Shown one piece after another: positions 24,499 to 41,000 of a stretch of DNA of 64,000 nucleotides. Positions within the stretch are counted from its first letter, which is position 1. Each line of letters opens with the position of its first letter. The stretch covers positions 496 through 64,495 of the forward strand of contig JANPCG010000012.1 of the NCBI GenBank assembly GCA_031430855.1, read 5' to 3'. The notes below the pieces were generated by a model. It worked only from the letters and a program-made list of their open reading frames with translations. It did not search any database and was not told the DNA's origin. Source of the stretch: Candidatus Kaiserbacteria bacterium (lineage in GTDB: Bacteria > Patescibacteriota > Minisyncoccia > Phycocordibacterales > UBA918). Made by a program: the position numbers and the translations under genes.

Positions 24499-24644
24499 TT
24501 GAGTTAGAGGGAGATTCTTTATCCTAATGAAATTATTCCTCTAGTCTAAAATATTATCCAAAAACGAGAAGGGAGATTCGGTCGTTAACACGACCAGTAC
24601 CCCAATTGGATAGTTTACCTCGCTTCGCTCCCAAACTATCTCAA

Positions 24645-24668
24645 TCGGGCTTCGAATCTCCCTCTCTC
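24645..24668 (+). repeat. tRNA-Ser 3'-end copy (att-like), inverted relative to the tRNA-Ser gene
   Basis: cttcgaatctccctctctc is an 18-19 nt perfect reverse complement of the gagagagggagattcgaa in tRNA-Ser at 39105-39123. Confidence 0.6.
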
Positions 24669-24871
24669 GCGCAAAATACAACAAAACCCAAACAAGGCTC
24701 AAGCTTTGTTTGGGTTTTGGTATTTGCGGGCTAGGTGAGTTAAGTACCCCCATGCTCAAGCCTTGTAAGGGTATTCTAGCACTTTTAGGGTAGGTCGATT
24801 TAGGTACGTGGGTCGGGGTCTGTGTATCGGAAAGGACGGCTCTTTTGCTCAGAATGAGACAAATGAGACAC

Positions 24872-28437: not shown

Positions 28438-29166
28438 CTAGCAAACCGTTGAGCCAATTGTCTCAAGTTTCTCCTTCACCTTCTCCCATTTAGGGAACTT
28501 CTGATCAAGGAAGGTAAAGAATCTTTTATCGTGATTCTTATACTTCATATGGCAGAGTTCGTGAACGATAACGTAGTCGATACAGTCCTTTGAAGTGTGA
28601 ATCAGTTTAGGGTTGAGGAATATCTTGTCTTGGTTCAAGAAACTACCCCAACGCTTCTTCATTTCTCGAATAGATAGCTTCGGCGTACTCTTGAAATCAA
28701 AGCGAGTAAGCATCTCGGTAAACCTATCTTGAAAGATGAGGTTAGTTTTCTCTGCAAACCAATTCTCGATAAGCTTCTTGTTGTGTTTGCCGTCGGTAAC
28801 TGATTTTGTTGTGAGAACAACGAGTTGACCTCGGGTAAGCGAAACAGAATCCTCTCTAGCTTTTCGAACAATGAGTTTGTATTGTCTACCGAGGTATAGG
28901 TATCCCTCGCCTGACACATATTCTTTTTCGTACATCTTTCGCTGGTACTTCTTAAAGAACGAAAGTTGCTTCTCTAGCCAGAACCACTTCTTTTGGAGAA
29001 AGGCTTCAATTCTTTCGCCTTCAGCTTTGAGGGGACACTTTACGATAATGCGTAAATCTGGAGTAACCGTGAGGCTCAGCGTTTTACGGTCTTGTTTAAT
29101 AAGTTGATATTCGTATATGAATGTTCCGAAGATAAATTCCTTCATATGATTATAAGAACAAATCAA
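28438..29166 (-). CDS. DUF45/YgjP-like zinc metallohydrolase (HExxH)
   Basis: VIVHELCHMKYKNHD motif; this family is commonly encoded beside type I hsdR. Confidence 0.6.
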   Translation of the reverse strand: MICSYNHMKEFIFGTFIYEYQLIKQDRKTLSLTVTPDLRIIVKCPLKAEGERIEAFLQKKWFWLEKQLSFFKKYQRKMYEKEYVSGEGYLYLGRQYKLIVRKAREDSVSLTRGQLVVLTTKSVTDGKHNKKLIENWFAEKTNLIFQDRFTEMLTRFDFKSTPKLSIREMKKRWGSFLNQDKIFLNPKLIHTSKDCIDYVIVHELCHMKYKNHDKRFFTFLDQKFPKWEKVKEKLETIGSTVC

Positions 29167-32100
29167 AATTATGCTCTGCTAGGAGCAGGGCGGTTTCAAT
29201 AACAACCTTGATCTGGTCGTTATCAATATCAATACCTTTCTCTCCCTTCACGATGTCATACAGATAGTCGTCAATACTATTTCGCATCTTGCGCTTCACG
29301 TCCGCATTTTTATACCAGTCGACGATTGCCTCGTTCTTGATGATGGTGAATATGTCGAGAATAGTAGCGATATAGACTTCCTCGCTGAGGTTCAGGTTAT
29401 CAAGTTCGACTCGAAGATTACGGTAGAACACATCTGAACCCTTTTGCGATTCAATCTGTTCTGGAAGGCTTTCATCTTTCTTGTTCACCACGTCGTCACT
29501 AATGAGTTTCATTTGCTTCAACGCTTCAACATCAGCGAGTTTGCCTTGACGCATCTTCTCAAGAATCTCTGAAATCTTCTTAGAAAACTTCTCGTAGAAT
29601 TCAGGATCACTATCCATTTTCTCTGAAATGGTTCTTTCAGTTTGTGCCGCGATTGCCTCAGCTTTTGACTTGTCAGAACCAAGGTTAGCCACCGCTTCCT
29701 CAAACTGCTTTCTGTCGGTAATGTTTACCTGCTTTGTGAGCAACTCAACGCCACGAGCATCAACATATTTATCAAGGATATTAATGAGTGATTGTTTGTA
29801 CTCAAGTAGATCAACACGGTCGGCATACTTTAGACTCGCAGACTTACGAAGTTCCAAGAACTTCTTGAGTTCACGCTTGTAGAGGTCGAGGTGATCGAAT
29901 TCATGAACGAAGTCTTGTAGCACAAAACACTCGTTCAGGTTTTTAATGAATGCATTAAGAGTCTTGTAGAACGTCTCACGTTTTGGTTGGTCAGATAGGA
30001 ATTGGAGATAGACTTCATCATCGGTTGATCCTTTGATTTCATTAAATAAATCATGGACGGTTCCATAACTCTGTTCTAGGTCTTGTATCTTCTCAGACAC
30101 ATCAATCAGAGTGCCTTTAACATCAGTCTCATCATAGTTACCGAAAAGCTTCATCGCTGTGTCGATGTTCTTAGCATTCTCGGAATAGTCCATGATGTAT
30201 CCGGCAGTCTTAGGCTTTTCCTTCTTGTTCTCAAACAAACGGTTTACACGCGCAATAGCCTGAAGCAAGTTGTGATCTTTTAGATCCTTGGCGAGATAGA
30301 GTACGGTGTTGCGTGGTGCATCAAAACCAGTGAGTAGTTTGTCGCACACAATAATGACCTCGATGCCATCGTCGTTATACTTAAAACTCCCGACGACATC
30401 CTTTTCGTATTTATCGACGCTACTGTGATTCTTACGAACTCCTTCTAGGTATCCGACTACTTCTTTCTTGTGGAGATTCTCCTCGTCTCCGTCTTCATGT
30501 TCATCAGAAATAATAACCGCCGTACGAATATTTCCCCGAGTCTCAAAGAACTTCTGGAAAAGGATGGCTGAGTATTTCGATGGAGCAACAATCTGAGCCT
30601 TGAGTCCGGTGTACTGGAAGTTCCTAATAAAGTGCGTTTCTATATCGTACGCAATTTCGACAATACGCTGAGGATTGTCTTTAATTATCTTACTTCCAAT
30701 GTATCGTTGTAGCTCTTTCTTCTGCTTCTCATTAAGTCCTTCGGTGATACGTTCAACATGGCGGTCTATTTGTTCCGCATTCTGAATGAGGTCTACATAC
30801 CGACCCTCATAGATAAGAGGGAGAATGATGTTATCAGCGAGAGCGTCATCAATGGTGTACTTATCGATGTAATCACCGAACTTCTTCCAACTCTCTCGGT
30901 CTTTCTTCATGAGTGGCGTACCAGTAAATCCGATGTAACAGGCATTTGGAATGATTCGATTCATCTCAAAGTTCGCCATACCGTTCTGACTTCGGTGTGC
31001 CTCATCAATAAGCACAAAGATATTTTTATCGTCGTCAACAAATCCCGTGCTCTTTTTTGCCGCAGATTCAAACTTCTGGACAAGCGTAGTTACTACCGAT
31101 AGATCCTTCTCTTTAATGAGGTCAATCAAGTGCTGACCACTGGTAGCCTGAACAACCTCTTTCTTGAGGTTACAGTTCTTAAACGTATCTTTGATCTGTT
31201 TATCCAAGTCACGACGGTCTGTCACAATAATGACTCGTGGATTGAGAATATGAGGATCCTCAATAAGAGCCTTCACAAACATCACCATAGTCAGTGACTT
31301 ACCTGATCCTTGGGTATGCCAGACGAGCCCACCTTTTCGGCGAGTGATCTCGTGGTCAGTTACTTCTTCCTCTTCCACTCGCTTCAACATCTTATGGATA
31401 GCAAAATACTGCTGGTAGCGTGAGAGCTTCTTTACTCCTGCGTCAAAGAGAATGTAATTTTTGGTCAAATCCAAAAGGCGTTTCGGCTCAAAGAGTGAAA
31501 ACACCCCTCGGTCTTGTTCTGTAGGGAGGCGGTCGGTTCTTTGTTTGTGACCATCCGTATAGCCGTTGAGGTCTTGTAGTACCTGAGCGTACACATCAGC
31601 ATCAATAGGCTTCTGAATCAGAGCGGTTACTTGTTCGTTAAATGTTTCTAGATCTGTGCCTTTTTCTTTCCATACCGCATAGAATTTGTTCGGTGTGCCA
31701 GTTGTTCCGTACTGTAGTTCCTTGCCGTTGGTAGCCACAAGGAGCTGGGTGTATGTGTACAGATTAGGGCAAAACTCAGAACTTTGGTTACGGTTCATTT
31801 GGTTAATCGCTTCACTTACCGCAACGCTCGACTTCTTGTTTTCAATGACTGCAAAAGGTAGCCCGTTAACGAACACCACGATATCTGGTCGTATGTTCTG
31901 CTTACCACTACAAGCATATTCAACAGATACGTGAAAAGCGTTATTGGCAATGTTTTCAAAATCTATGAACCGAAAGTTCTTTGATACTTTTTTACCGCCA
32001 TTATTAACCTTAATGGTCTTACCACCACTCGTCGGCATGATGGTGTTGTATATCTTCTGAGCAGTATCTATGAGTCCTTCGTATTGGATATGCTCAAGTT

Positions 32101-32341
32101 CATCAATAGCGTCACGTACATCTTTCTCACTGAATTTATAATCAGTACCATCGACCTCGTATCCATTGATCTCCATCAGTTTCTCTGTAGCAATATCAGC
32201 CAAGATGAAGTTTGAAGTATTGCCACGTTGCTTCAAAGCCTCCTCAACAGAAACATAGGTGTAGCCCGTATTCAGAAGAAGCTCCACAAATGGAAGTTGC
32301 GATTGTCGTGCCTCGTCAAAATTTACTTTATCTAATGTCAT
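29150..32341 (-). CDS. hsdR: Type I restriction enzyme R subunit
   Basis: 1063 aa; helicase motif I HTQGSGKSLT and DEAH (VLIDEAHRSQ). Confidence 0.9.
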   Translation of the reverse strand: MTLDKVNFDEARQSQLPFVELLLNTGYTYVSVEEALKQRGNTSNFILADIATEKLMEINGYEVDGTDYKFSEKDVRDAIDELEHIQYEGLIDTAQKIYNTIMPTSGGKTIKVNNGGKKVSKNFRFIDFENIANNAFHVSVEYACSGKQNIRPDIVVFVNGLPFAVIENKKSSVAVSEAINQMNRNQSSEFCPNLYTYTQLLVATNGKELQYGTTGTPNKFYAVWKEKGTDLETFNEQVTALIQKPIDADVYAQVLQDLNGYTDGHKQRTDRLPTEQDRGVFSLFEPKRLLDLTKNYILFDAGVKKLSRYQQYFAIHKMLKRVEEEEVTDHEITRRKGGLVWHTQGSGKSLTMVMFVKALIEDPHILNPRVIIVTDRRDLDKQIKDTFKNCNLKKEVVQATSGQHLIDLIKEKDLSVVTTLVQKFESAAKKSTGFVDDDKNIFVLIDEAHRSQNGMANFEMNRIIPNACYIGFTGTPLMKKDRESWKKFGDYIDKYTIDDALADNIILPLIYEGRYVDLIQNAEQIDRHVERITEGLNEKQKKELQRYIGSKIIKDNPQRIVEIAYDIETHFIRNFQYTGLKAQIVAPSKYSAILFQKFFETRGNIRTAVIISDEHEDGDEENLHKKEVVGYLEGVRKNHSSVDKYEKDVVGSFKYNDDGIEVIIVCDKLLTGFDAPRNTVLYLAKDLKDHNLLQAIARVNRLFENKKEKPKTAGYIMDYSENAKNIDTAMKLFGNYDETDVKGTLIDVSEKIQDLEQSYGTVHDLFNEIKGSTDDEVYLQFLSDQPKRETFYKTLNAFIKNLNECFVLQDFVHEFDHLDLYKRELKKFLELRKSASLKYADRVDLLEYKQSLINILDKYVDARGVELLTKQVNITDRKQFEEAVANLGSDKSKAEAIAAQTERTISEKMDSDPEFYEKFSKKISEILEKMRQGKLADVEALKQMKLISDDVVNKKDESLPEQIESQKGSDVFYRNLRVELDNLNLSEEVYIATILDIFTIIKNEAIVDWYKNADVKRKMRNSIDDYLYDIVKGEKGIDIDNDQIKVVIETALLLAEHNFDLFL

Positions 32342-32345
32342 ATGT

Positions 32346-33623
32346 TTATGAGGTTATTTTGGCTGATAATGTTTCAGGTGTTCGGATGGTCCCAGTGATT
32401 AGGTTGTTGAGGAGATATCTTTTCTGTTCTTTGATGATGGACAGTTTCTTTTCCAGCTCGGTTATTTCTTTATCTGCGGTTATTAATATTTTTACAATGG
32501 CTTCTTGTTCTTCAATAGGAGGGAGTTTTAATTCAAACTTTGCCATATCCGATCCATACAGGTGAAAGACTGTGGTGCCTGAAACAAGTTTGATGACGTC
32601 TTTTTTATTTAGATTAACTAGGTAACAAAAGAAGAGTCCATTCAAACTACCATTGGATCTTATGATTAAGATATCTCCTCCTAAAATGATCCCATCTTTA
32701 TCTAGATAACTTGCTGTAGACAAACCTCGGGGAGTAACATCGGAAGTTGGCATGAGGATATCGTTTACTTTCGAAAGAACCATACCTTTATTGTAGTTTG
32801 TTTTGCTTATGATGTTCTCTATATACTCAGCGTACTTAGTAAATAGCTCTCCATAATGTATGGCTTCGTATTTTCCTTCAGAATCTAGGTCGTTCTTAGG
32901 CAAACCTTTACCTTTTTTAAATGACGCAATTTCTCCAAGTTTTACAGACTTCCACTTCTCACCAAATCCAGTTAATCGTCTTTTACCAGTTAGTAAATCC
33001 TGCATCAGACTTTTCTTGATCTGCTTTTTTACTTCAATTTTTCGCGTAAGCCTTTTAATTATCTGGTCCCAAGTTTCTATAACAGAGATAATACGACTTT
33101 GTTCTAGTAGGGGTGGGAGAGCAAGTTTGAATTTTTTAATCAACGGAATCGTCAATTGTGGCTGGGCACTGCCGAATGATACTCGCTTGAGCTCTCTTAA
33201 GAAATGAGACGAAATAAAATATTTATAGAGGAAGGCAGTCTCTAAATCAGTATCTACAGTTTTGTTTCTTAGTATTGCCATCCCAGAGTTAATCCTTACA
33301 TCAGCAAAAGGAACGTTCTCAGAATATGAAGCCACACTACCGATTGTGCCTCTGGTTGTAATCACAAGATCACCTCTTTCGAGCCTTCCTTTATTCATTG
33401 ATGAGTCCTTTGCTTTTGAAATAAATTGATTCTCACTAAAATTAAAACCTTGTTTTGTAACATTTGTGGCAGTAAGAAAAAGACAAAAACCATCAGTTGA
33501 AAAATCATCCTGATGCGGGTAGTTTTTACCCCTATCGCCGTCAATAACTTTTACCCCAACTTCCTGCAAAGTTAAATTTCTCCATCCTTGGGGTATATTT
33601 TTTTGTGATTGGTTAGTTTTCAT
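32346..33623 (-). CDS. hsdS: Type I restriction-modification specificity subunit
   Basis: Two TRDs separated by conserved LALPPLLEQ / LKLPPIEEQ coiled-coil spacers. Confidence 0.85.
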   Translation of the reverse strand: MKTNQSQKNIPQGWRNLTLQEVGVKVIDGDRGKNYPHQDDFSTDGFCLFLTATNVTKQGFNFSENQFISKAKDSSMNKGRLERGDLVITTRGTIGSVASYSENVPFADVRINSGMAILRNKTVDTDLETAFLYKYFISSHFLRELKRVSFGSAQPQLTIPLIKKFKLALPPLLEQSRIISVIETWDQIIKRLTRKIEVKKQIKKSLMQDLLTGKRRLTGFGEKWKSVKLGEIASFKKGKGLPKNDLDSEGKYEAIHYGELFTKYAEYIENIISKTNYNKGMVLSKVNDILMPTSDVTPRGLSTASYLDKDGIILGGDILIIRSNGSLNGLFFCYLVNLNKKDVIKLVSGTTVFHLYGSDMAKFELKLPPIEEQEAIVKILITADKEITELEKKLSIIKEQKRYLLNNLITGTIRTPETLSAKITS

Positions 33624-33625
33624 AA

Positions 33626-34936
33626 TTAACTCCCATTTAAAACCACATCTTGCCTAGCCTTAGCAACACAAATGTTATTCTTTATGGCATAGCACTCAAC
33701 ATAATGATTGCCAGAATATTTTGTATCCTCTATTTCATTTTTAGTTCGATTATCAGTTATTTCTCCTCTTGGCTGATCACAAGAACTATCGTTCTTAACT
33801 TTCCATTTAAAGATATTTACATCTGGAGAGTTTCCCGATATTAAGAATTTAATCTTCCTGTCTACGCTAATTAGCCCAATTTTATCTAGAATAAATTCTC
33901 TAAAACCACCCCTGCGCACTTGGACTTCTCCGCAGATCTTAAAATTGTATTGTTCTTCAAGTAAAGTTTTAATATTTTCGTCAAATATAAATTTCTCAGA
34001 CGGCGATCTCTTGTAAAAAGAAATATCTACTAGATTATCTGTAGAGTCTGAATCTCTCAGGTTTTCAAGTTTTATTAAAAAACCATCTCGAGCACAGAGT
34101 ATCTTTTCTTTCTGATCGGGTGTGAGTTTCGCTAGGTAATCATCAATAAATTTCGCACTATTTGCTCTATCTTGAATTTGATTAGGGGTATTAACAACGT
34201 TTGGTAAGTTTATAAAAAATGTAAAAATGGCATCAAAAATTTCAATGTTTGGATTTTGTTTAAATATTTTTGTAATTACTTGCTCAAGGTGAAAAGACTT
34301 GAGTTTCAAGTTTTGATCTTTATCGCATAGATTATTTTTCCATCTTTTAACAAACTTCACTGTCTTTCTAAAATCACTATTTATACCAACCTCAGTAGCA
34401 ACTTTAATGTATCCTCTAGGATCAGAGTTAATCCAAGCGTTTGTATCAGAAGCATTCCAAGTCAAAGTATTACGTTTGTTGTGGTTTCTCTCTTTAATCA
34501 CTTCCGGAACCTTATATGTATCCTGATTGAACTCATTTTTTCCGTATGAATAAGCAGGAACAATATCAACTGATAAAATCATGTCAGTGTTTTGCCAAAA
34601 CTCTACAGTAACTGAGTGTGTCTGTAGAGAAACCTTCTTCATGTAGCTTGTCGGATTTCTATAGCTACCACTTATTTCATTAAATAATTTTTGAAGTGTT
34701 GCTGAAGGTGAGTGATCATTTTCATCCCAAGAACCAAGAATATATAGAATATCCAGATCATGAATAGGTGTTATTGCTGTGAAGCGAGGATATGATCCTA
34801 TTTGAATACAGTTATTTACACCAAATAGGTCATTAAAAGACTGGTAGACTTTACCTATCAAATCTTGCTCGGTAGGTTTAGGTGAGAGTGTCTTCGCATA
34901 CTCTCGCAATTTTGAGTTGAATTTATCTTTTGTCAT
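33626..34936 (-). CDS. cGAS/DncV-like nucleotidyltransferase (CD-NTase/SMODS-type Pol-beta NTase)
   Basis: IGSYPRFTAITPIHDLDILYIL (GS-x11-DxD) and a third acidic motif SVDIVPA 52 aa later; 436 aa with a long helical C-terminus; coupled between hsdS and the 2-TM gene. Confidence 0.55.
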   Translation of the reverse strand: MTKDKFNSKLREYAKTLSPKPTEQDLIGKVYQSFNDLFGVNNCIQIGSYPRFTAITPIHDLDILYILGSWDENDHSPSATLQKLFNEISGSYRNPTSYMKKVSLQTHSVTVEFWQNTDMILSVDIVPAYSYGKNEFNQDTYKVPEVIKERNHNKRNTLTWNASDTNAWINSDPRGYIKVATEVGINSDFRKTVKFVKRWKNNLCDKDQNLKLKSFHLEQVITKIFKQNPNIEIFDAIFTFFINLPNVVNTPNQIQDRANSAKFIDDYLAKLTPDQKEKILCARDGFLIKLENLRDSDSTDNLVDISFYKRSPSEKFIFDENIKTLLEEQYNFKICGEVQVRRGGFREFILDKIGLISVDRKIKFLISGNSPDVNIFKWKVKNDSSCDQPRGEITDNRTKNEIEDTKYSGNHYVECYAIKNNICVAKARQDVVLNGS

Positions 34937-35468
34937 AACTTGTGCTCAGTAGAGTTGTCACTATGTCATTAATAAGACGACCTCGCATATTAACAATAGT
35001 AGTAAATTGCTGATTGTTTATTGCCTTCATCATTTCTGGAGAAATCACAATTGATGGGGGTGTGAACTCAGGAAAGTAAAAAATAAAACCCGCATTTGAT
35101 TTCTTGTTTGAAAGAATAGTTTTTATCTGGTCTTCAGTAAAAGACTGATAGTGTACTAACGCCAATGTAGTTTCTTTTACTTTTGACAGTGTGTCCGGTT
35201 TGATTTGGTAGATATTTTTTTCTCTAAAAACACCCGTGTCAACTAAATCTGTCTTTAACGATGAAAACATATCGTCATTAGCCACTATCGCAATTTTTCT
35301 ACTCCAACGACCAAACCCTAACCTTAAAAAGAGTGGATATACACCAAGAGTCCAACTCGTTATCGCCCAGATGAAAAGACATATAGCAAAGATCGTTGTT
35401 AGCGCTCCGACAATATTTACAAATATAGTTAAGAAATTTAGTAGAGTCATATATTTATTTAATTCCAA
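34923..35468 (-). CDS. 2-TM membrane protein with C-terminal alpha/beta domain, candidate effector partner of the NTase
   Basis: Two N-terminal TM helices (residues about 8-52) then an about 125-aa soluble domain; overlaps hsdM stop and NTase start by 14 nt each. Confidence 0.45.
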   Translation of the reverse strand: MELNKYMTLLNFLTIFVNIVGALTTIFAICLFIWAITSWTLGVYPLFLRLGFGRWSRKIAIVANDDMFSSLKTDLVDTGVFREKNIYQIKPDTLSKVKETTLALVHYQSFTEDQIKTILSNKKSNAGFIFYFPEFTPPSIVISPEMMKAINNQQFTTIVNMRGRLINDIVTTLLSTSYDKR

Positions 35469-36963
35469 GTTCTTTTAGATAAACAGCCATTTGTTTTTCA
35501 AGCTTCTGTAGCTCTGGTTCAAGTTCTGCAAGTTCTTTCAGGTTCGCAGTAATATCTACAGGGGCTTCTTCGGTGAAAGTATCTACGTAACGAGTGATGT
35601 TGAGGTTGAAATCGTTCTCCTCAATCTCTTTAAGACTCACTTTGCGAGCAAACTTTGCTACATCTTTACGAGTCTTGTAGGTAGAGTAAATCTTCTCGAT
35701 GTTTTCATCGGTCAGAATGTTCTGAGCCTTATTTGCCTTGAACTCCTTAGATGCTTCGATAAAGAAGACATCTTTCTTGCTTTCATTCTCTCCGCCTTTT
35801 TCTCGCGAACGGTCTAAGACGAGAATTGCTACTGGAATACCTGTGGTCTGGAATAGTCCGGCTGGGAGCCCAATAACTGCTTCGACGACGTTTTCCTTTA
35901 GAAGTTGTTCACGGATTTTACCCTCGGCTCCACCTCGAAAGAGAACACCATGAGGAACAATAACGGCAATGCGCCCTGTCTTTGGTTTTGCTGTTTCCAC
36001 CATGTGCGTGATAAAGGCAAAGTCACCTTTATCCTTCGGTGGAGTACCACGCCAGAAGCGCTTGTACTTGTCTGCATCCGCATGTTCCGCACCCCATTTC
36101 TTGAGAGAGAATGGTGGGTTCGATACTACCGTGTCGAACTTCATTAGACGATCGTCTTCAACGAGAAGTGGATTGTTGAGTGTGTCACCCCATTCCAGAC
36201 GAGCAGAATCCTTTCCGTGGAGGAACATATTCATGCGAGCAAGTTGATAGGTTGAACCTGTTGATTCCTGACCATACAGAGCGTAGTTTTTAGAGCCTTG
36301 TTTCTCTACTTCTTCACCAGCAAGGAGGAGGAGACCACCCGATCCGGCACAAGGGTCACAGATACGTGCGCCAGGCTTTGGTTCGGCAAGCCGTGCTACG
36401 AGATGAGCTACATTGCGAACGGTAAAAAATTCACCAGCTTTTTTACCTGCGTCTGCACCAAACTTCTCAATCAGGTACATGTAAGAGTTACCGATGATAT
36501 CGTCATTTACTCCTGTGAGATCAATCTTTGCAAAATCTTGTACGAGGTTGCGGAGCATCTTGTTACGCTCAGCAAGTTTGCCGAGGTTTGCTTCTGAGTT
36601 GAAGTCTACAGAAAATACACCATCAAGCTTTTCCTTGTTATGGTCTTCAATACGATGGAGTGCCTTGTTTATTTCTTCACCAAGGTTGTCTTGTTCGATG
36701 ATTGAGTAAATGTAATCAAACGATGACTTCGGAGGGAGGTAGAAGCGATCCAGCTTCATTTTTTCCTCGATACGCTTTTCGTCGCCAGCGAACCGCTTTT
36801 TGTATTCGTCGTGTGCTGTCTTTGATTTATCACTAAGATACTTCAAGAAAAGCATCGGAAGTACGTAGTTCATGTAGTCCGCCGCATTGAGCTGACTGCG
36901 TGAAGAGTTTGCCGAATCCCAAAGGGTCTTATTGAGGTCTTCCTGAGTGTATTTCTTAGTCAT
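35455..36963 (-). CDS. hsdM: Type I R-M N6-adenine DNA methyltransferase subunit
   Basis: Motif I DPCAGSGGLL and motif IV NPPF. Confidence 0.9.
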   Translation of the reverse strand: MTKKYTQEDLNKTLWDSANSSRSQLNAADYMNYVLPMLFLKYLSDKSKTAHDEYKKRFAGDEKRIEEKMKLDRFYLPPKSSFDYIYSIIEQDNLGEEINKALHRIEDHNKEKLDGVFSVDFNSEANLGKLAERNKMLRNLVQDFAKIDLTGVNDDIIGNSYMYLIEKFGADAGKKAGEFFTVRNVAHLVARLAEPKPGARICDPCAGSGGLLLLAGEEVEKQGSKNYALYGQESTGSTYQLARMNMFLHGKDSARLEWGDTLNNPLLVEDDRLMKFDTVVSNPPFSLKKWGAEHADADKYKRFWRGTPPKDKGDFAFITHMVETAKPKTGRIAVIVPHGVLFRGGAEGKIREQLLKENVVEAVIGLPAGLFQTTGIPVAILVLDRSREKGGENESKKDVFFIEASKEFKANKAQNILTDENIEKIYSTYKTRKDVAKFARKVSLKEIEENDFNLNITRYVDTFTEEAPVDITANLKELAELEPELQKLEKQMAVYLKELGIK

Positions 36964-36964
36964 A

Positions 36965-37567
36965 TTATTGGTTAATTAAATTAAAGCTGGCGTTGATAAT
37001 GGTTTTTTGGATCTCTTGCTTTCGTTTGTGTATTCGTTCTTGGTCGGTGATGTTTTCCTGAAGGGCTATGATCGACTTCTGTGTATGTACTGGCGGTAGG
37101 GGTATTTCAAAGTCGTTGAGGTTTTTTACGAGGATGCTCTGTATGTATGAGGCACCTGTAACTATTTGCGATAGTGCCTTTTGTCCGTCTGTTGAATTGA
37201 GATAAAGACAGACATACTTAGGTAGCGCAGTGACGTCTTTGATTCGAATGACATGAACCGATGATGATGGCATCACACGCATCTCATTTGAGGCAAAGAC
37301 AGCAGAGCGAAACGAACCAGCTCCTGAGCCTCTTGAAACAAGCAAAATATCGTTATACTGCAAAAAGTAGGGGGTTCTGAGTGATTTACCTGAAAACAGG
37401 GTCAGATCGCCCGTTTCAACCACTTCTTGATTCGGAGAGATATTCTTGGCTTGGAGCACGAAGATGTCGCCTTTAGGGTCATTTTCAATCGGTCCACGGA
37501 ACGTGTACCCAGAAGATATGTCTGCTATTTGGCTCAATTCCTTGTGCATGTATGGAGTGTACTGCAC
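36965..37567 (-). CDS. Half-size HsdS-like specificity protein (single TRD)
   Basis: 200 aa with one TRD plus conserved IPLPPVHTQKSIIALQ spacer; 1 nt upstream of hsdM. Confidence 0.6.
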   Translation of the reverse strand: MQYTPYMHKELSQIADISSGYTFRGPIENDPKGDIFVLQAKNISPNQEVVETGDLTLFSGKSLRTPYFLQYNDILLVSRGSGAGSFRSAVFASNEMRVMPSSSVHVIRIKDVTALPKYVCLYLNSTDGQKALSQIVTGASYIQSILVKNLNDFEIPLPPVHTQKSIIALQENITDQERIHKRKQEIQKTIINASFNLINQ

Positions 37568-37657: not shown

Positions 37658-38986
37658 ATGAATCAAGCAATATCAATGCCATACGGCACCAAAATACAGG
37701 AGGTAGTACCCGTAAAGGTGAAATACTGCCTTTACGCAAGAAAATCAACGGAATCAGAAGAACGCCAAGTTCTCTCTATAGATAGCCAGATTAAGGAGAT
37801 GCTCCAGCTGGCAGACCGAGAGTGCTTGGAGGTGGTGACAATGAAGCGAGAAAGTCACTCCGCGAAGGAGACTGGGCAACGACCAGTCTTTAACGAAATA
37901 GTCGAAGAGATAGGAGAAGGTAAATACAATGGAATTCTGACATGGGCACCAGACCGTATCAGCAGAAATGCCGGCGACCTTGGGAGAATTGTAGACTTAA
38001 TGGACTCAGGCAAGCTCGAAGAAATACGCACCTTCGGGCAGAAGTTCGGCAATAATCCAAACGAGAAGTTCCTGCTGATGATTTTGGGATCACAGGCAAA
38101 ACTCGAGAATGACAACCGCGGTATCAATGTGAAGCGAGGTTTGAGAACAAGAGCTGAGATGGGACTATGGTCGGGACAAGCTCCCTTAGGTTATCTAACC
38201 CAAGGGCTAATGGATAAGAAATGCCAGCTGATTATTGACCCACTCCGAGCATCAGCAGTGAAGCAGATGTTTGAAAAAGTAGCCTACGAACAATGGTCAG
38301 GACGCAAGGTATACAACTGGCTCCGCTTCGAGCTCAACTTCTATACAAGAGGAAATAAACCTCTCACCCTCGGAGGTGTGTACCGCATCCTAGAAAACCC
38401 TTTCTACTACGGCGTCTTCGAGCGACCACGTAAAAGTGGAAACTGGTATCAAGGTAAACATACGCCACTCATCACACAGGAGTTATTCGAGAAATCAAAA
38501 GCCCAGCTCAAGCGTGATCAGATAGTGCGTGAGACTAAAGAATTTGCCTTCACGAAACTTTTCACCTGCGGATACTGTGGATCAGGTATATCAGCTGAAG
38601 AGAAATGGAAACAACTCAAGGATGGTGGAGCAAATAGATACATATACTACTCCTGCTCACGAGCGCGAGACCGCAACTGCAAGAACATGTATATCCGCGA
38701 AGAAGATTTAATACTAGAACTCCTGAAGATATTGGATAAGGTAAATATCAATGAGCTTGGTATGAGGCAGAAGCTTGAGGATGAAATTGCACGGTTCAAT
38801 ATTTTCCAACGGTCGGTACTTGGAGCCAAAGAAAAGATAAAAACAGATGCAGATACTGATATACGAAACTACGCAAAGTACATACTGAAAGAAGGTACGA
38901 CGATTGAGAAACGTGAACTACTGGCGAACTTACGATCACGGATAATGTACAAAGATAAAACGCTCACCTTGATAGATGAGCGTTAA
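37658..38986 (+). CDS. Large serine recombinase (integrase/resolvase family)
   Basis: Catalytic YARKSTESEE..SIDSQ N-terminal domain, recombinase domain and C-terminal zinc ribbon (CGYCG..CSRARDRNC); likely start at MPYGTK (37676). Confidence 0.85.
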   Translation: MNQAISMPYGTKIQEVVPVKVKYCLYARKSTESEERQVLSIDSQIKEMLQLADRECLEVVTMKRESHSAKETGQRPVFNEIVEEIGEGKYNGILTWAPDRISRNAGDLGRIVDLMDSGKLEEIRTFGQKFGNNPNEKFLLMILGSQAKLENDNRGINVKRGLRTRAEMGLWSGQAPLGYLTQGLMDKKCQLIIDPLRASAVKQMFEKVAYEQWSGRKVYNWLRFELNFYTRGNKPLTLGGVYRILENPFYYGVFERPRKSGNWYQGKHTPLITQELFEKSKAQLKRDQIVRETKEFAFTKLFTCGYCGSGISAEEKWKQLKDGGANRYIYYSCSRARDRNCKNMYIREEDLILELLKILDKVNINELGMRQKLEDEIARFNIFQRSVLGAKEKIKTDADTDIRNYAKYILKEGTTIEKRELLANLRSRIMYKDKTLTLIDER

Positions 38987-39096: not shown

Positions 39097-39186
39097 TGGC
39101 GGAGAGAGGGAGATTCGAACTCCCGAGGAGGTTTCCCCCCTGACAGTTTTCAAGACTGTTCCATTCAACCGCTCTGGCATCTCTCC
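39097..39186 (-). tRNA. tRNA-Ser (anticodon UGA), type II with long variable arm, CCA encoded
   Basis: Reverse complement GGAGAGATGCCAGAGCGGTTGAATGG...CAGTCTTGAAAACTG...GGGAGTTCGAATCTCCCTCTCTCCGCCA folds as a class II tRNA. Confidence 0.85.
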
Positions 39187-39818: not shown

Positions 39819-39890
39819 GCTCTCATAGTTTAATGGATAGAATGCCAGTTTGCGGAATTGGCGATTCAGGTTCGATTCCTGGTGAGAGCA
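39819..39890 (+). tRNA. tRNA-Arg (anticodon reads GCG in my fold; unusual, uncertain)
   Basis: Acceptor GCTCTCA/TGAGAGC, T-arm TCAGG-TTCGATT-CCTGG, anticodon loop TTGCGGA; D-stem has two G-T wobbles. Confidence 0.55.
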
Positions 39891-40100
39891 CGAGTACAAA
39901 AATGAGCACCCTTCTGGGGTGCCATTTTTGTTCGTGCTCTCACAGAAACTGTGCCTGCGCACAGTTGCGACAGGAATCGAAAGTCGGAGTCATGTCGCTT
40001 TAGCGACAGACGAGACAGGGTCGTGAGTGACATAATTTTAGGGAGTGAAACGACCATAAAATTAGTCGACTCCTGACCGAACTTCCTGGTGAGAGCGGGT
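39884..40100 (+). repeat. About 210-bp tRNA-associated repeat, copy A, ending in a tRNA 3'-end copy
   Basis: About 85% identical to 40782-41000; begins in the tRNA-Arg 3' end and ends with cttcctggtgagagc. Confidence 0.7.
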
Positions 40101-40324: not shown

Positions 40325-40618
40325 ATGAAGAAACACGTCATATTTTTCTCACTCCTATTATTTATAGCAATAGGAACACTATTGATTGTCCAAAATCAGC
40401 AAAATGTTGCAGGAAAACAAGAAAATCAATGCCTTGCTTCAGGTGGAGGGTGGGCGCCTTACTGGGATCAGATAGACTGTAATGGAAACAAACTTTTATC
40501 AAATTCTGATTTAGTTAATAGAGATAAGACATGTTGGTGCCATTCGCTAAACACGTGCTGGAACGGTACTGACTGCGTTTCTCGAGAGAGCAGTACACAA
40601 CCGTCCGAAAAAAATTGA
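40325..40618 (+). CDS. Small secreted Cys-rich protein (bacteriocin-like?)
   Basis: Signal peptide MKKHVIFFSLLLFIAIGTLLIV plus an about 70-aa mature part with 6 Cys; sits between the two repeat copies. Confidence 0.4.
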   Translation: MKKHVIFFSLLLFIAIGTLLIVQNQQNVAGKQENQCLASGGGWAPYWDQIDCNGNKLLSNSDLVNRDKTCWCHSLNTCWNGTDCVSRESSTQPSEKN

Positions 40619-40781
40619 GTCAGCATCACTTGCTCTACTAGCCACTTCTCAAAACTCCTAGGTTGTACGATATGTCTGGCTTACTCCATTAATAGATCCT
40701 ACTGACAGACCTTATTAAATGCTGGCCTGATTAGCTTAAAGACTCCTACAGGGCTTGATGAAAGATTTTTCCAGCCCGAGA

Positions 40782-41000
40782 GAGAGCACAAGCACAAAAA
40801 TGAGCACCCCTTAAAAAGGGTGCTATTTTCATTCGTGCTCTCACAGTAATTGTGCCTACGCACAGGTACGTCAGGAATCGAAAGTCGGAGTGATGTGAGT
40901 TTATGAACAAGTGAGACAGGGTCGTGAGCGACATATTTTTAAAGAGCGAAGCGATTATGAAAATAGTCGACTCCTGGCCGATTCCTGGCGACAGAACTGC
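40782..41000 (+). repeat. About 210-bp tRNA-associated repeat, copy B
   Basis: Homologous to 39884-40100; ends with gattcctggcgacag (a degenerate tRNA 3' end). Confidence 0.7.

Follow-up and report, generated by a model that had tools for sequence, protein, structure and literature searches.

The 64,000-nucleotide (nt) stretch of contig JANPCG010000012.1 (assembly GCA_031430855.1) analysed here, referred to below as the window, very probably encodes a two-gene type I anti-phage system of the CBASS kind (cyclic-oligonucleotide-based antiphage signalling system), in which a protein of 436 amino acids (aa) would act as the second-messenger synthase. Systems of this kind are known already, as both the AGS-C cyclase and its effector with a single transmembrane helix (1TM) have PADLOC models. 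What is less ordinary is that the CBASS pair is a swappable cargo within a type I restriction-modification (R-M) operon. The two genes adjoin one another in a single operon, and accessory genes are absent, which is the defining make-up of type I CBASS: scans with Pfam, PADLOC and NCBIfam found no Cap2/Cap3, HORMA/TRIP13 or type IV accessory genes in the operon, and the interval that holds the effector and the cyclase has no room for another open reading frame (ORF). A preliminary description of this DNA, made from hand-recognised motifs, had read the 436-aa protein as a cGAS/DncV-like nucleotidyltransferase (CD-NTase). That reading is upheld by profiles, catalytic residues and modelled fold, whereas the AGS-C fusion, the effector neighbor and the R-M operon context had gone unrecognised.

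The ORF of the cyclase was confirmed and its GS-x11-DhD spacing proved exact upon recheck. The string IGSYPRFTAITPIHDLDILYIL, which starts at residue 46, supplies the key residues G47, S48, D60 and D62, while SVDIVPA, which starts at residue 122, supplies D124. This third motif had been placed about 52 residues later, a figure that was loose, since 54 residues separate the two strings and D124 follows D62 by 62 positions. When the window is translated in all six frames and stop-free stretches of 60 aa or longer are kept (39,665 residues), GS-x9-13-DhDh occurs a single time, and the full three-part motif was recovered in 0 of 20,000 shuffles of the cyclase sequence. Profile searches yield a consistent picture. 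The Pfam SMODS model (PF18144) matches residues 39-149 above its cut-off (30.8 bits versus 26.5), PADLOC PDLC00785 matches residues 1-434 with a 443-position profile (E 4.4e-184, 610.8 bits), 22 further PADLOC models of CBASS cyclases match as well, and the best NCBIfam matches are two CBASS cyclase equivalogs (87.6 and 48.8 bits, each far under a cut-off of 200). The non-signalling nucleotidyltransferase (NTase) families that the preliminary description had named as potential competitors (AbiEii, aminoglycoside-NTase and poly(A)-polymerase) are missing from the Pfam and NCBIfam matches (E <= 0.1), and so is NTP_transf_2. A database search returned 839 homologues, and the catalytic triad is kept on alignment, with G47, S48, D60, D62 and D124 invariant across 41 aligned homologues (54-86% identity). 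Among PDB sequences, matches were limited to P. aeruginosa CdnD (6p8u, 6p82) and E. coli CdnC (6p80), and both Asn residues of the CdnD D62N/D64N chain (6p8j) align with D60 and D62 of the cyclase. The family is spread over Patescibacteria, DPANN archaea, Pseudomonadota, Bacteroidota, Bdellovibrionota and other groups, and its orthologues include some from culturable hosts (Brevundimonas diminuta SCAU 5, Flavobacterium hiemivividum and Desulfogranum mediterraneum DSM 13871). A more distant and shorter SMODS subfamily of ~335 aa without AGS-C was also encountered (loci L068 and L072-L087), and its genes form a different, three-gene architecture: an ORF of ~160 aa abuts the cyclase on the upstream side, and a conserved gene of ~240 aa follows it.

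An AlphaFold2 model of the cyclase, built with the 41-homologue alignment (pLDDT 89.3, pTM 0.88), displays the bilobed cGAS/DncV-like fold of an NTase core and a helical lobe. A Foldseek comparison of this model with the PDB placed CdnD, cGAS and CdnC at the top (probability 1.0); the model is closest to bacterial CD-NTases, while oligoadenylate synthases, poly(A) polymerases and terminal uridylyltransferases rank behind. The C-terminus of about 280 aa had been considered compatible with the helical lobe. This holds for residues ~150-310, but residues ~326-434 make up a separate all-beta domain, AGS-C (PF18134 on residues 326-432, 60 bits, cut-off 26.7), which adopts an immunoglobulin (Ig)-like beta fold in the model and lies C-terminal to the cyclase core. 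AGS-C is proposed to be a sensor or specificity domain. It is borne by ~40% of type I CBASS cyclases, with fusions known from clades B and H and from some of F and G, and its presence is correlated with which phage families a system restricts (bioRxiv 10.1101/2023.05.21.541620). Within the AGS-C domain of the window cyclase, the invariant set (residues 378-423) consists of W378, V380, N382, R390, T398, E403, C415 and C423, and the model places the two cysteines, C415 and C423, on neighbouring strands. As judged from the alignment, these invariant positions are candidate functional residues.

The second component of the system is encoded directly upstream on the same strand, and the last 14 nt of this effector gene overlap the start of the cyclase. 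A TTG start listed at 35468 is probably spurious; because the effector homologues are almost all 175 aa long, the ATG at 35450, four nt past the hsdM stop, is the start adopted here. The effector model consists of a single N-terminal membrane helix followed by a cytosolic, five-stranded CheY-like (βα)5 domain (residues ~50-175). The protein has no family match in Pfam or NCBIfam, including none to SLATT in Pfam, and its features are not those of a Cap15- or SLATT-type effector. Its invariant residues include a juxtamembrane R-x-G-x-x-R-W-x-R and an N-x-R-G-R-L-x-N-D, both of which are candidate phosphate-binding sites. The arginines R43, R48, R51, R76, R156 and R158 are among the invariant positions. 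The effector additionally matches the PADLOC membrane-protein models C3a59 (4.7e-34) and Mem_04 (7e-7), the latter being described by PADLOC as a membrane protein of a type III operon that "could be a CARF domain diverged beyond recognition". These similarities are compatible with the effector being a cyclic-oligonucleotide receptor and hint at a receptor family shared with the cyclic oligoadenylate signalling of CRISPR systems. The association of effector and cyclase is itself conserved. Among 64 full-length family loci sampled from species-representative genomes, an effector homologue is detectable directly upstream of the cyclase in about 55, usually overlapping it, and in most of the remaining loci an ORF of ~130-240 aa on the same strand abuts the cyclase. 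In the literature searched, we found no characterised member of this cyclase cluster, nor one of the 1TM effector.

The pair resides within a complete type I R-M operon, in which HsdM, HsdS and HsdR are all present and full length (Table 1). The gene order is half-size hsdS, hsdM, effector, cyclase, hsdS, hsdR and YgjP-like gene, and the gaps measure 1-4 nt save for two overlaps of 14-17 nt, effector/cyclase and hsdR/YgjP (with its listed TTG start). The CBASS pair exactly fills the interval between hsdM and hsdS, with gaps of 2-4 nt. HsdM also exceeds the cut-off of TIGR00497 (261 versus 243 bits). The half-size hsdS upstream of hsdM is kept in nearly all related loci, while the YgjP-like gene follows hsdR in L002, L006, L012, L056-58, L088 and L091 as well. 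Promoter-like matches within the operon were fewer than expected by chance (11 versus 25 ± 5.7 in shuffles), and no convincing minus-strand terminator was found within it. Base composition differs along the operon: the cyclase, effector and hsdS genes have a GC content of 0.33-0.37 (0.33-0.35 for cyclase and effector; 0.365 for the variable, low-GC full-length hsdS) and a GC content at third codon positions (GC3) of 0.27-0.32, as opposed to 0.42-0.45 and 0.44-0.47, respectively, in hsdM and hsdR. An inverton connecting the half-size and full-size hsdS genes was considered and rejected, as no inverted repeat links them. A full-length LOOT RNA (Rfam RF03000; 28202-28328 minus; 74.2 bits versus a gathering score of 46.4) immediately follows the YgjP gene on the same strand, where the R-M operon ends.

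Table 1. Positions in the window of the cyclase, its partner gene and the surrounding operon and flank.
Feature	Position	Strand	Basis or detail
CD-NTase (SMODS) cyclase with C-terminal AGS-C	33626..34936	minus	436 aa, ATG start, TAA stop
Catalytic codons of the cyclase	G47-S48 34793-34798; D60 34757-34759; D62 34751-34753; D124 34565-34567	minus	
AGS-C Ig-like domain of the cyclase	33635..33961	minus	residues ~326-434
CBASS effector	34923..35450	minus	175 aa from ATG; PADLOC "Effector 1TM" 2e-53
Half-size hsdS (one target recognition domain, TRD), first operon gene	36965..37567	minus	Pfam Methylase_S 4e-10
hsdM, type I R-M methyltransferase, left slot border	35455..36963	minus	Pfam N6_Mtase 6e-100, HsdM_N
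Full-length hsdS (two TRDs), right slot border	32346..33623	minus	Methylase_S 1e-35 (two stretches); PADLOC Specificity_I 3e-65
hsdR, restriction subunit	29150..32341	minus	TIGR00348 475 bits (cut-off 285); HSDR_N, SWI2_SNF2, ResIII, T1R_D3
YgjP-like metallopeptidase, last operon gene	28438..29166	minus	Pfam PF01863 1.7e-52
Large serine recombinase	37658..38986	plus	Pfam Resolvase, Recombinase, Zn_ribbon_recom
tRNA-Ser (TGA)	39097..39186	minus	ARAGORN; flanks the recombinase/R-M block

It is evident from related loci that the interval between hsdM and hsdS is a variable cargo slot. The HsdM of the window belongs to a cluster of 68 Patescibacteria proteins sharing at least 90% identity. Related hsdM loci number about 424, and the slot was surveyed in 80 further sampled loci whose HsdM is 73-96% identical. 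In the ~55 loci whose contig includes both hsdM and hsdS, the gap is occupied without exception, by 670-3918 nt and one to five same-strand ORFs. The 156 cargo proteins recovered fall into 68 unrelated families, and because so many unrelated families occupy it, the slot is best regarded as a general cargo position. Its contents include ThsB_TIR and ThsA_Macro (Thoeris), other SMODS cyclases, SLATT_4, Shedu SduA_C, Abi_alpha, DUF3800 and DUF4917, as well as AAA_15/AAA_21 ATPases (OLD, Gabija or AriA-like), caspase- and trypsin-like peptidases, HerA and UvrD. Apart from the window, the combination of 1TM effector and AGS-C cyclase is the slot content of only four sampled loci. Sister operons built upon the same scaffold carry a ThsB-TIR cassette (L088-90), a different, short CD-NTase cassette (L091, L092) or AntA together with the same CBASS pair (L006). 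Between the window and these sister operons, DNA homology ends at the hsdM stop codon (35447-35456) and is picked up again only within hsdS, in its conserved central and 3' parts. The borders are similarly sharp across the survey, with the first cargo ATG 1-9 nt past the hsdM stop (72 left junctions) and the cargo stops a few nt short of the conserved hsdS start (51 right junctions). An integron-like border site was sought and rejected, as the 72 left and 51 right junctions are conserved only in the hsdM and hsdS coding sequences. There is no conserved non-coding site at either border, which makes recombination within the flanking genes a better account of how the slot contents are exchanged than an integron-like mechanism. 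The slot agrees with the published view that operons of type I R-M, BREX, DISARM and Hma systems can harbour embedded defence genes (bioRxiv 10.1101/2024.01.29.577857), of which TgvAB is a further published case (PMC11411939).

Sharing an operon with R-M genes most likely provides the pair with co-transcription and the cell with a second, sequence-independent defence layer. A stronger proposition would be that the slot is obligatorily occupied and hypervariable and that its cargo is wired to restriction, possibly both by co-transcription and by activation upon failure or inhibition of restriction. We consider this proposition unlikely, although it would, if true, make the R-M operon a platform pairing sequence-specific restriction with exchangeable abortive-infection back-ups. 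Slightly less probable still is an R-M-coupled guard resembling PrrC, in which the pair would not be autonomous: the cyclase, perhaps through AGS-C, would monitor the HsdM/HsdS/HsdR complex or be kept inactive by it, and would fire once an anti-restriction protein of a phage disables restriction. The placement of the pair inside the operon with minimal gaps, and with no internal promoter or terminator above chance, speaks for such a guard, and PrrC itself is a type I-embedded effector under R-M control (bioRxiv 10.1101/2024.01.29.577857). Furthermore, the CBASS family is operonic with type I hsd genes in 10 of 53 usable species-representative loci, with hsd genes within 5 kb in two more, a frequent association by counts that cover this family alone. 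These hsd-linked loci comprise at least five arrangements from several phyla, among them hsdM-pair-hsdS, hsdM-hsdS-pair-X-hsdR (Flavobacterium) and hsdR-pair (a Woesearchaeota metagenome-assembled genome), and in the metagenomic locus L004 the pair follows a type II ApaLI/N6-methyltransferase pair. Yet the same 10 of 53 rule out an obligate R-M linkage, since about three quarters of the family occur as a two-gene unit by itself, away from any R-M gene. In addition, the slot carries many unrelated cargo families, and AGS-C cyclases cloned without R-M defend E. coli (bioRxiv 10.1101/2023.05.21.541620). The shared operon does not seem to stem from an obligatory physical coupling of CBASS to R-M. 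Given that the family lies mostly outside R-M loci and that the slot is open to cargo of any kind, co-transcription and layered defence are favoured over an obligate, PrrC-like coupling.

The cassette might alternatively be a decaying or silent passenger that was acquired recently and no longer functions in its host. Its GC3 of 0.27-0.31, compared with 0.44-0.47 in the flanking genes, does suggest a recent import. However, neither ORF is disrupted or shortened when set against its profile, every catalytic and family-invariant position keeps its residue, and two independent metagenome contigs (L002 and L003) have the same layout with a cyclase that is 86% identical and an effector that is ~91% identical. 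These independent occurrences in the same layout indicate purifying selection on the cassette, and the passenger scenario is highly improbable. The least probable alternative of all is a non-signalling Pol-beta NTase, such as an AbiEii/MNT-type toxin-antitoxin component, an aminoglycoside NTase or a tailing enzyme, that shares just GS...DxD...D with the signalling enzymes, as 23 CBASS cyclase models match, no such family is among the Pfam and NCBIfam matches, the top structural matches are all CD-NTases, a conserved CBASS effector partner lies beside the gene and the AGS-C fusion is typical of signalling cyclases.

Several observations nonetheless weigh against identifying the pair as a working type I CBASS. 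Firstly, the Pfam SMODS cut-off is cleared by a narrow margin (30.8 versus 26.5 bits), and the match to CBASS_cyclase_b (NF041117; 87.6 bits over residues 30-273) is far under the cut-off of 200. On account of the latter score, the cyclase is, by its sequence, a relative of the CBASS_cyclase_b equivalog that falls outside the curated NCBIfam set. Secondly, its PDB profile matches reach clade D and C structures only, whereas surveys place AGS-C fusions in clades B, H, F and G, not in C or D (bioRxiv 10.1101/2023.05.21.541620). The likely product of the cyclase would follow from its CD-NTase clade. As regards the available structures, clades F and H seem, to our knowledge, to be without a solved representative, and none was among the PDB matches here. 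Thirdly, structure comparison found the soluble domain of the effector to be unlike any solved CBASS effector and to match the generic CheY-like fold only, at ~10% identity, so that its presumed ligand binding and membrane disruption are drawn by analogy. Lastly, the cyclase and its close relatives are known from sequences and models alone, and abortive infection in the host, a probably uncultured Patescibacteria lineage, would likewise be expected by analogy.

By comparison with other type I systems, phage infection would switch the cyclase on; the triggers suggested by published screens of type I CBASS come late and belong to virion assembly, the prohead protease being one example. AGS-C may influence which phages are sensed. 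The activated cyclase would turn nucleoside triphosphates into a cyclic di- or tri-nucleotide, and this signal would presumably be bound by the effector through its arginine-rich (βα)5 cytosolic domain. Oligomerisation of the effector and damage to the inner membrane might follow, such that the cell would be killed or arrested before phage release, i.e. by abortive infection.

When compared with known systems, the window pair has the same two-gene make-up as type I CBASS consisting of a CD-NTase-AGS-C and a transmembrane effector (Millman 2020 via PADLOC; Richmond-Buccola et al. 2023/2024). Both proteins match PADLOC models that were built from the Millman classification, and the likeness extends to the SMODS core, the Ig-like AGS-C, the small membrane effector and the absence of accessories, but the window pair differs in being embedded in a type I R-M operon and in its host, which is probably a member of the Patescibacteria. 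The type I CBASS of the Lactococcus plasmid pUCCL631C, counted among verified antiphage systems, exhibits the same gene order and overlap, with a 190-aa SLATT effector followed by a 408-aa NTase/AGS-C (PMC11381338). The two cyclases share the same full-length architecture (97% of the query covered) at only 24.8% identity, whereas the effectors differ, that of pUCCL631C being a SLATT-domain protein and that of the window having a (βα)5 soluble domain and no SLATT match. CdnD (P. aeruginosa 6p82) and CdnC (E. coli MS115-1 6p80) belong to type III CBASS, are regulated by HORMA/TRIP13 and are without AGS-C; in the window, AGS-C is present and HORMA/TRIP13 genes are absent. Like Cap15 and SLATT effectors, the window effector is a small protein with a membrane segment at its N-terminus and a soluble domain at its C-terminus, and its gene lies beside that of an AGS-C cyclase. 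Duncan-Lowey et al. reportedly described in 2021 a beta-barrel ligand domain in Cap15, from which the five-stranded β/α CheY-like domain modelled here is distinct. With regard to embedding, PrrC in EcoprrI, TgvAB in V. cholerae VPI-2 and the "guilt-by-embedding" cases (Payne et al. 2024) similarly consist of a same-strand cassette between hsd genes, and as in the window, many alternative defence cargos are found at the same place. The main text of Payne et al. 2024 has 0 occurrences of CBASS (bioRxiv 10.1101/2024.01.29.577857). While a PrrC-like system is embedded (almost) exclusively in R-M loci, the CBASS family of the window is mostly found outside R-M operons.

The flanks of the operon contain several further elements. 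The large serine recombinase is divergent from the operon and adjoins the tRNA-Ser gene, and many loci have it next to the same R-M scaffold; the tRNA-Ser flank is homologous in L088 and L091. A close relative of this recombinase occurs in a Bdellovibrionales metagenome-assembled genome (L012, 6177-7505; phmmer E 2e-236, ~71% DNA identity), where it adjoins an hsdM-effector-cyclase block, the hsdM of which is of a different lineage. DNA homology of ~70% between the window and L012 covers the recombinase as well as the segment from the hsdM 3' end to the 5' half of the cyclase, and because of this homology, a transfer of modules between phyla is suggested. In a search for island boundaries, no direct, attachment site (att)-like repeats of the tRNA-Ser 3' end were found. 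There is an 18-nt perfect inverted copy of that 3' end (T-arm to acceptor) at 24651-24668 (+), reverse-complementary to 39102-39119. It lies within a tRNA-like 3' fragment at 24629-24719 (+) that has a strong hairpin at 24682-24719 and in which neither ARAGORN nor Rfam calls a tRNA; the fragment may be what is left of a tRNA, or else an old att site. On the other side, two direct repeats (39871-40080 and 40769-40981; 41 nt + 164 nt, 80-82% identity) are situated ~900 nt apart. The first copy begins within the 3' end of a tRNA-Arg (39819-39891), and the repeats flank a 97-aa Cys-rich ORF (40325-40618) with a hydrophobic, signal-peptide-like N-terminus.

Taken alone, the 436-aa protein is one more CBASS cyclase, and its recovery shows that motifs read by hand can find CD-NTases. 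Its context adds a complete and apparently intact type I CBASS in what is probably a Patescibacteria lineage with a small genome. An AGS-C cyclase is paired here with an effector class of which no characterised member was found in the literature searched, composed of one transmembrane helix and a CheY-like domain with many invariant arginines. The locus is furthermore a clean natural case of a precisely bounded cargo slot in a type I R-M operon. Two things are worth following, namely this kind of effector and the cargo slot, always filled in the present R-M lineage. Comparing dozens of slot cargos could yield new defence genes and probe whether embedded systems are coupled to restriction.

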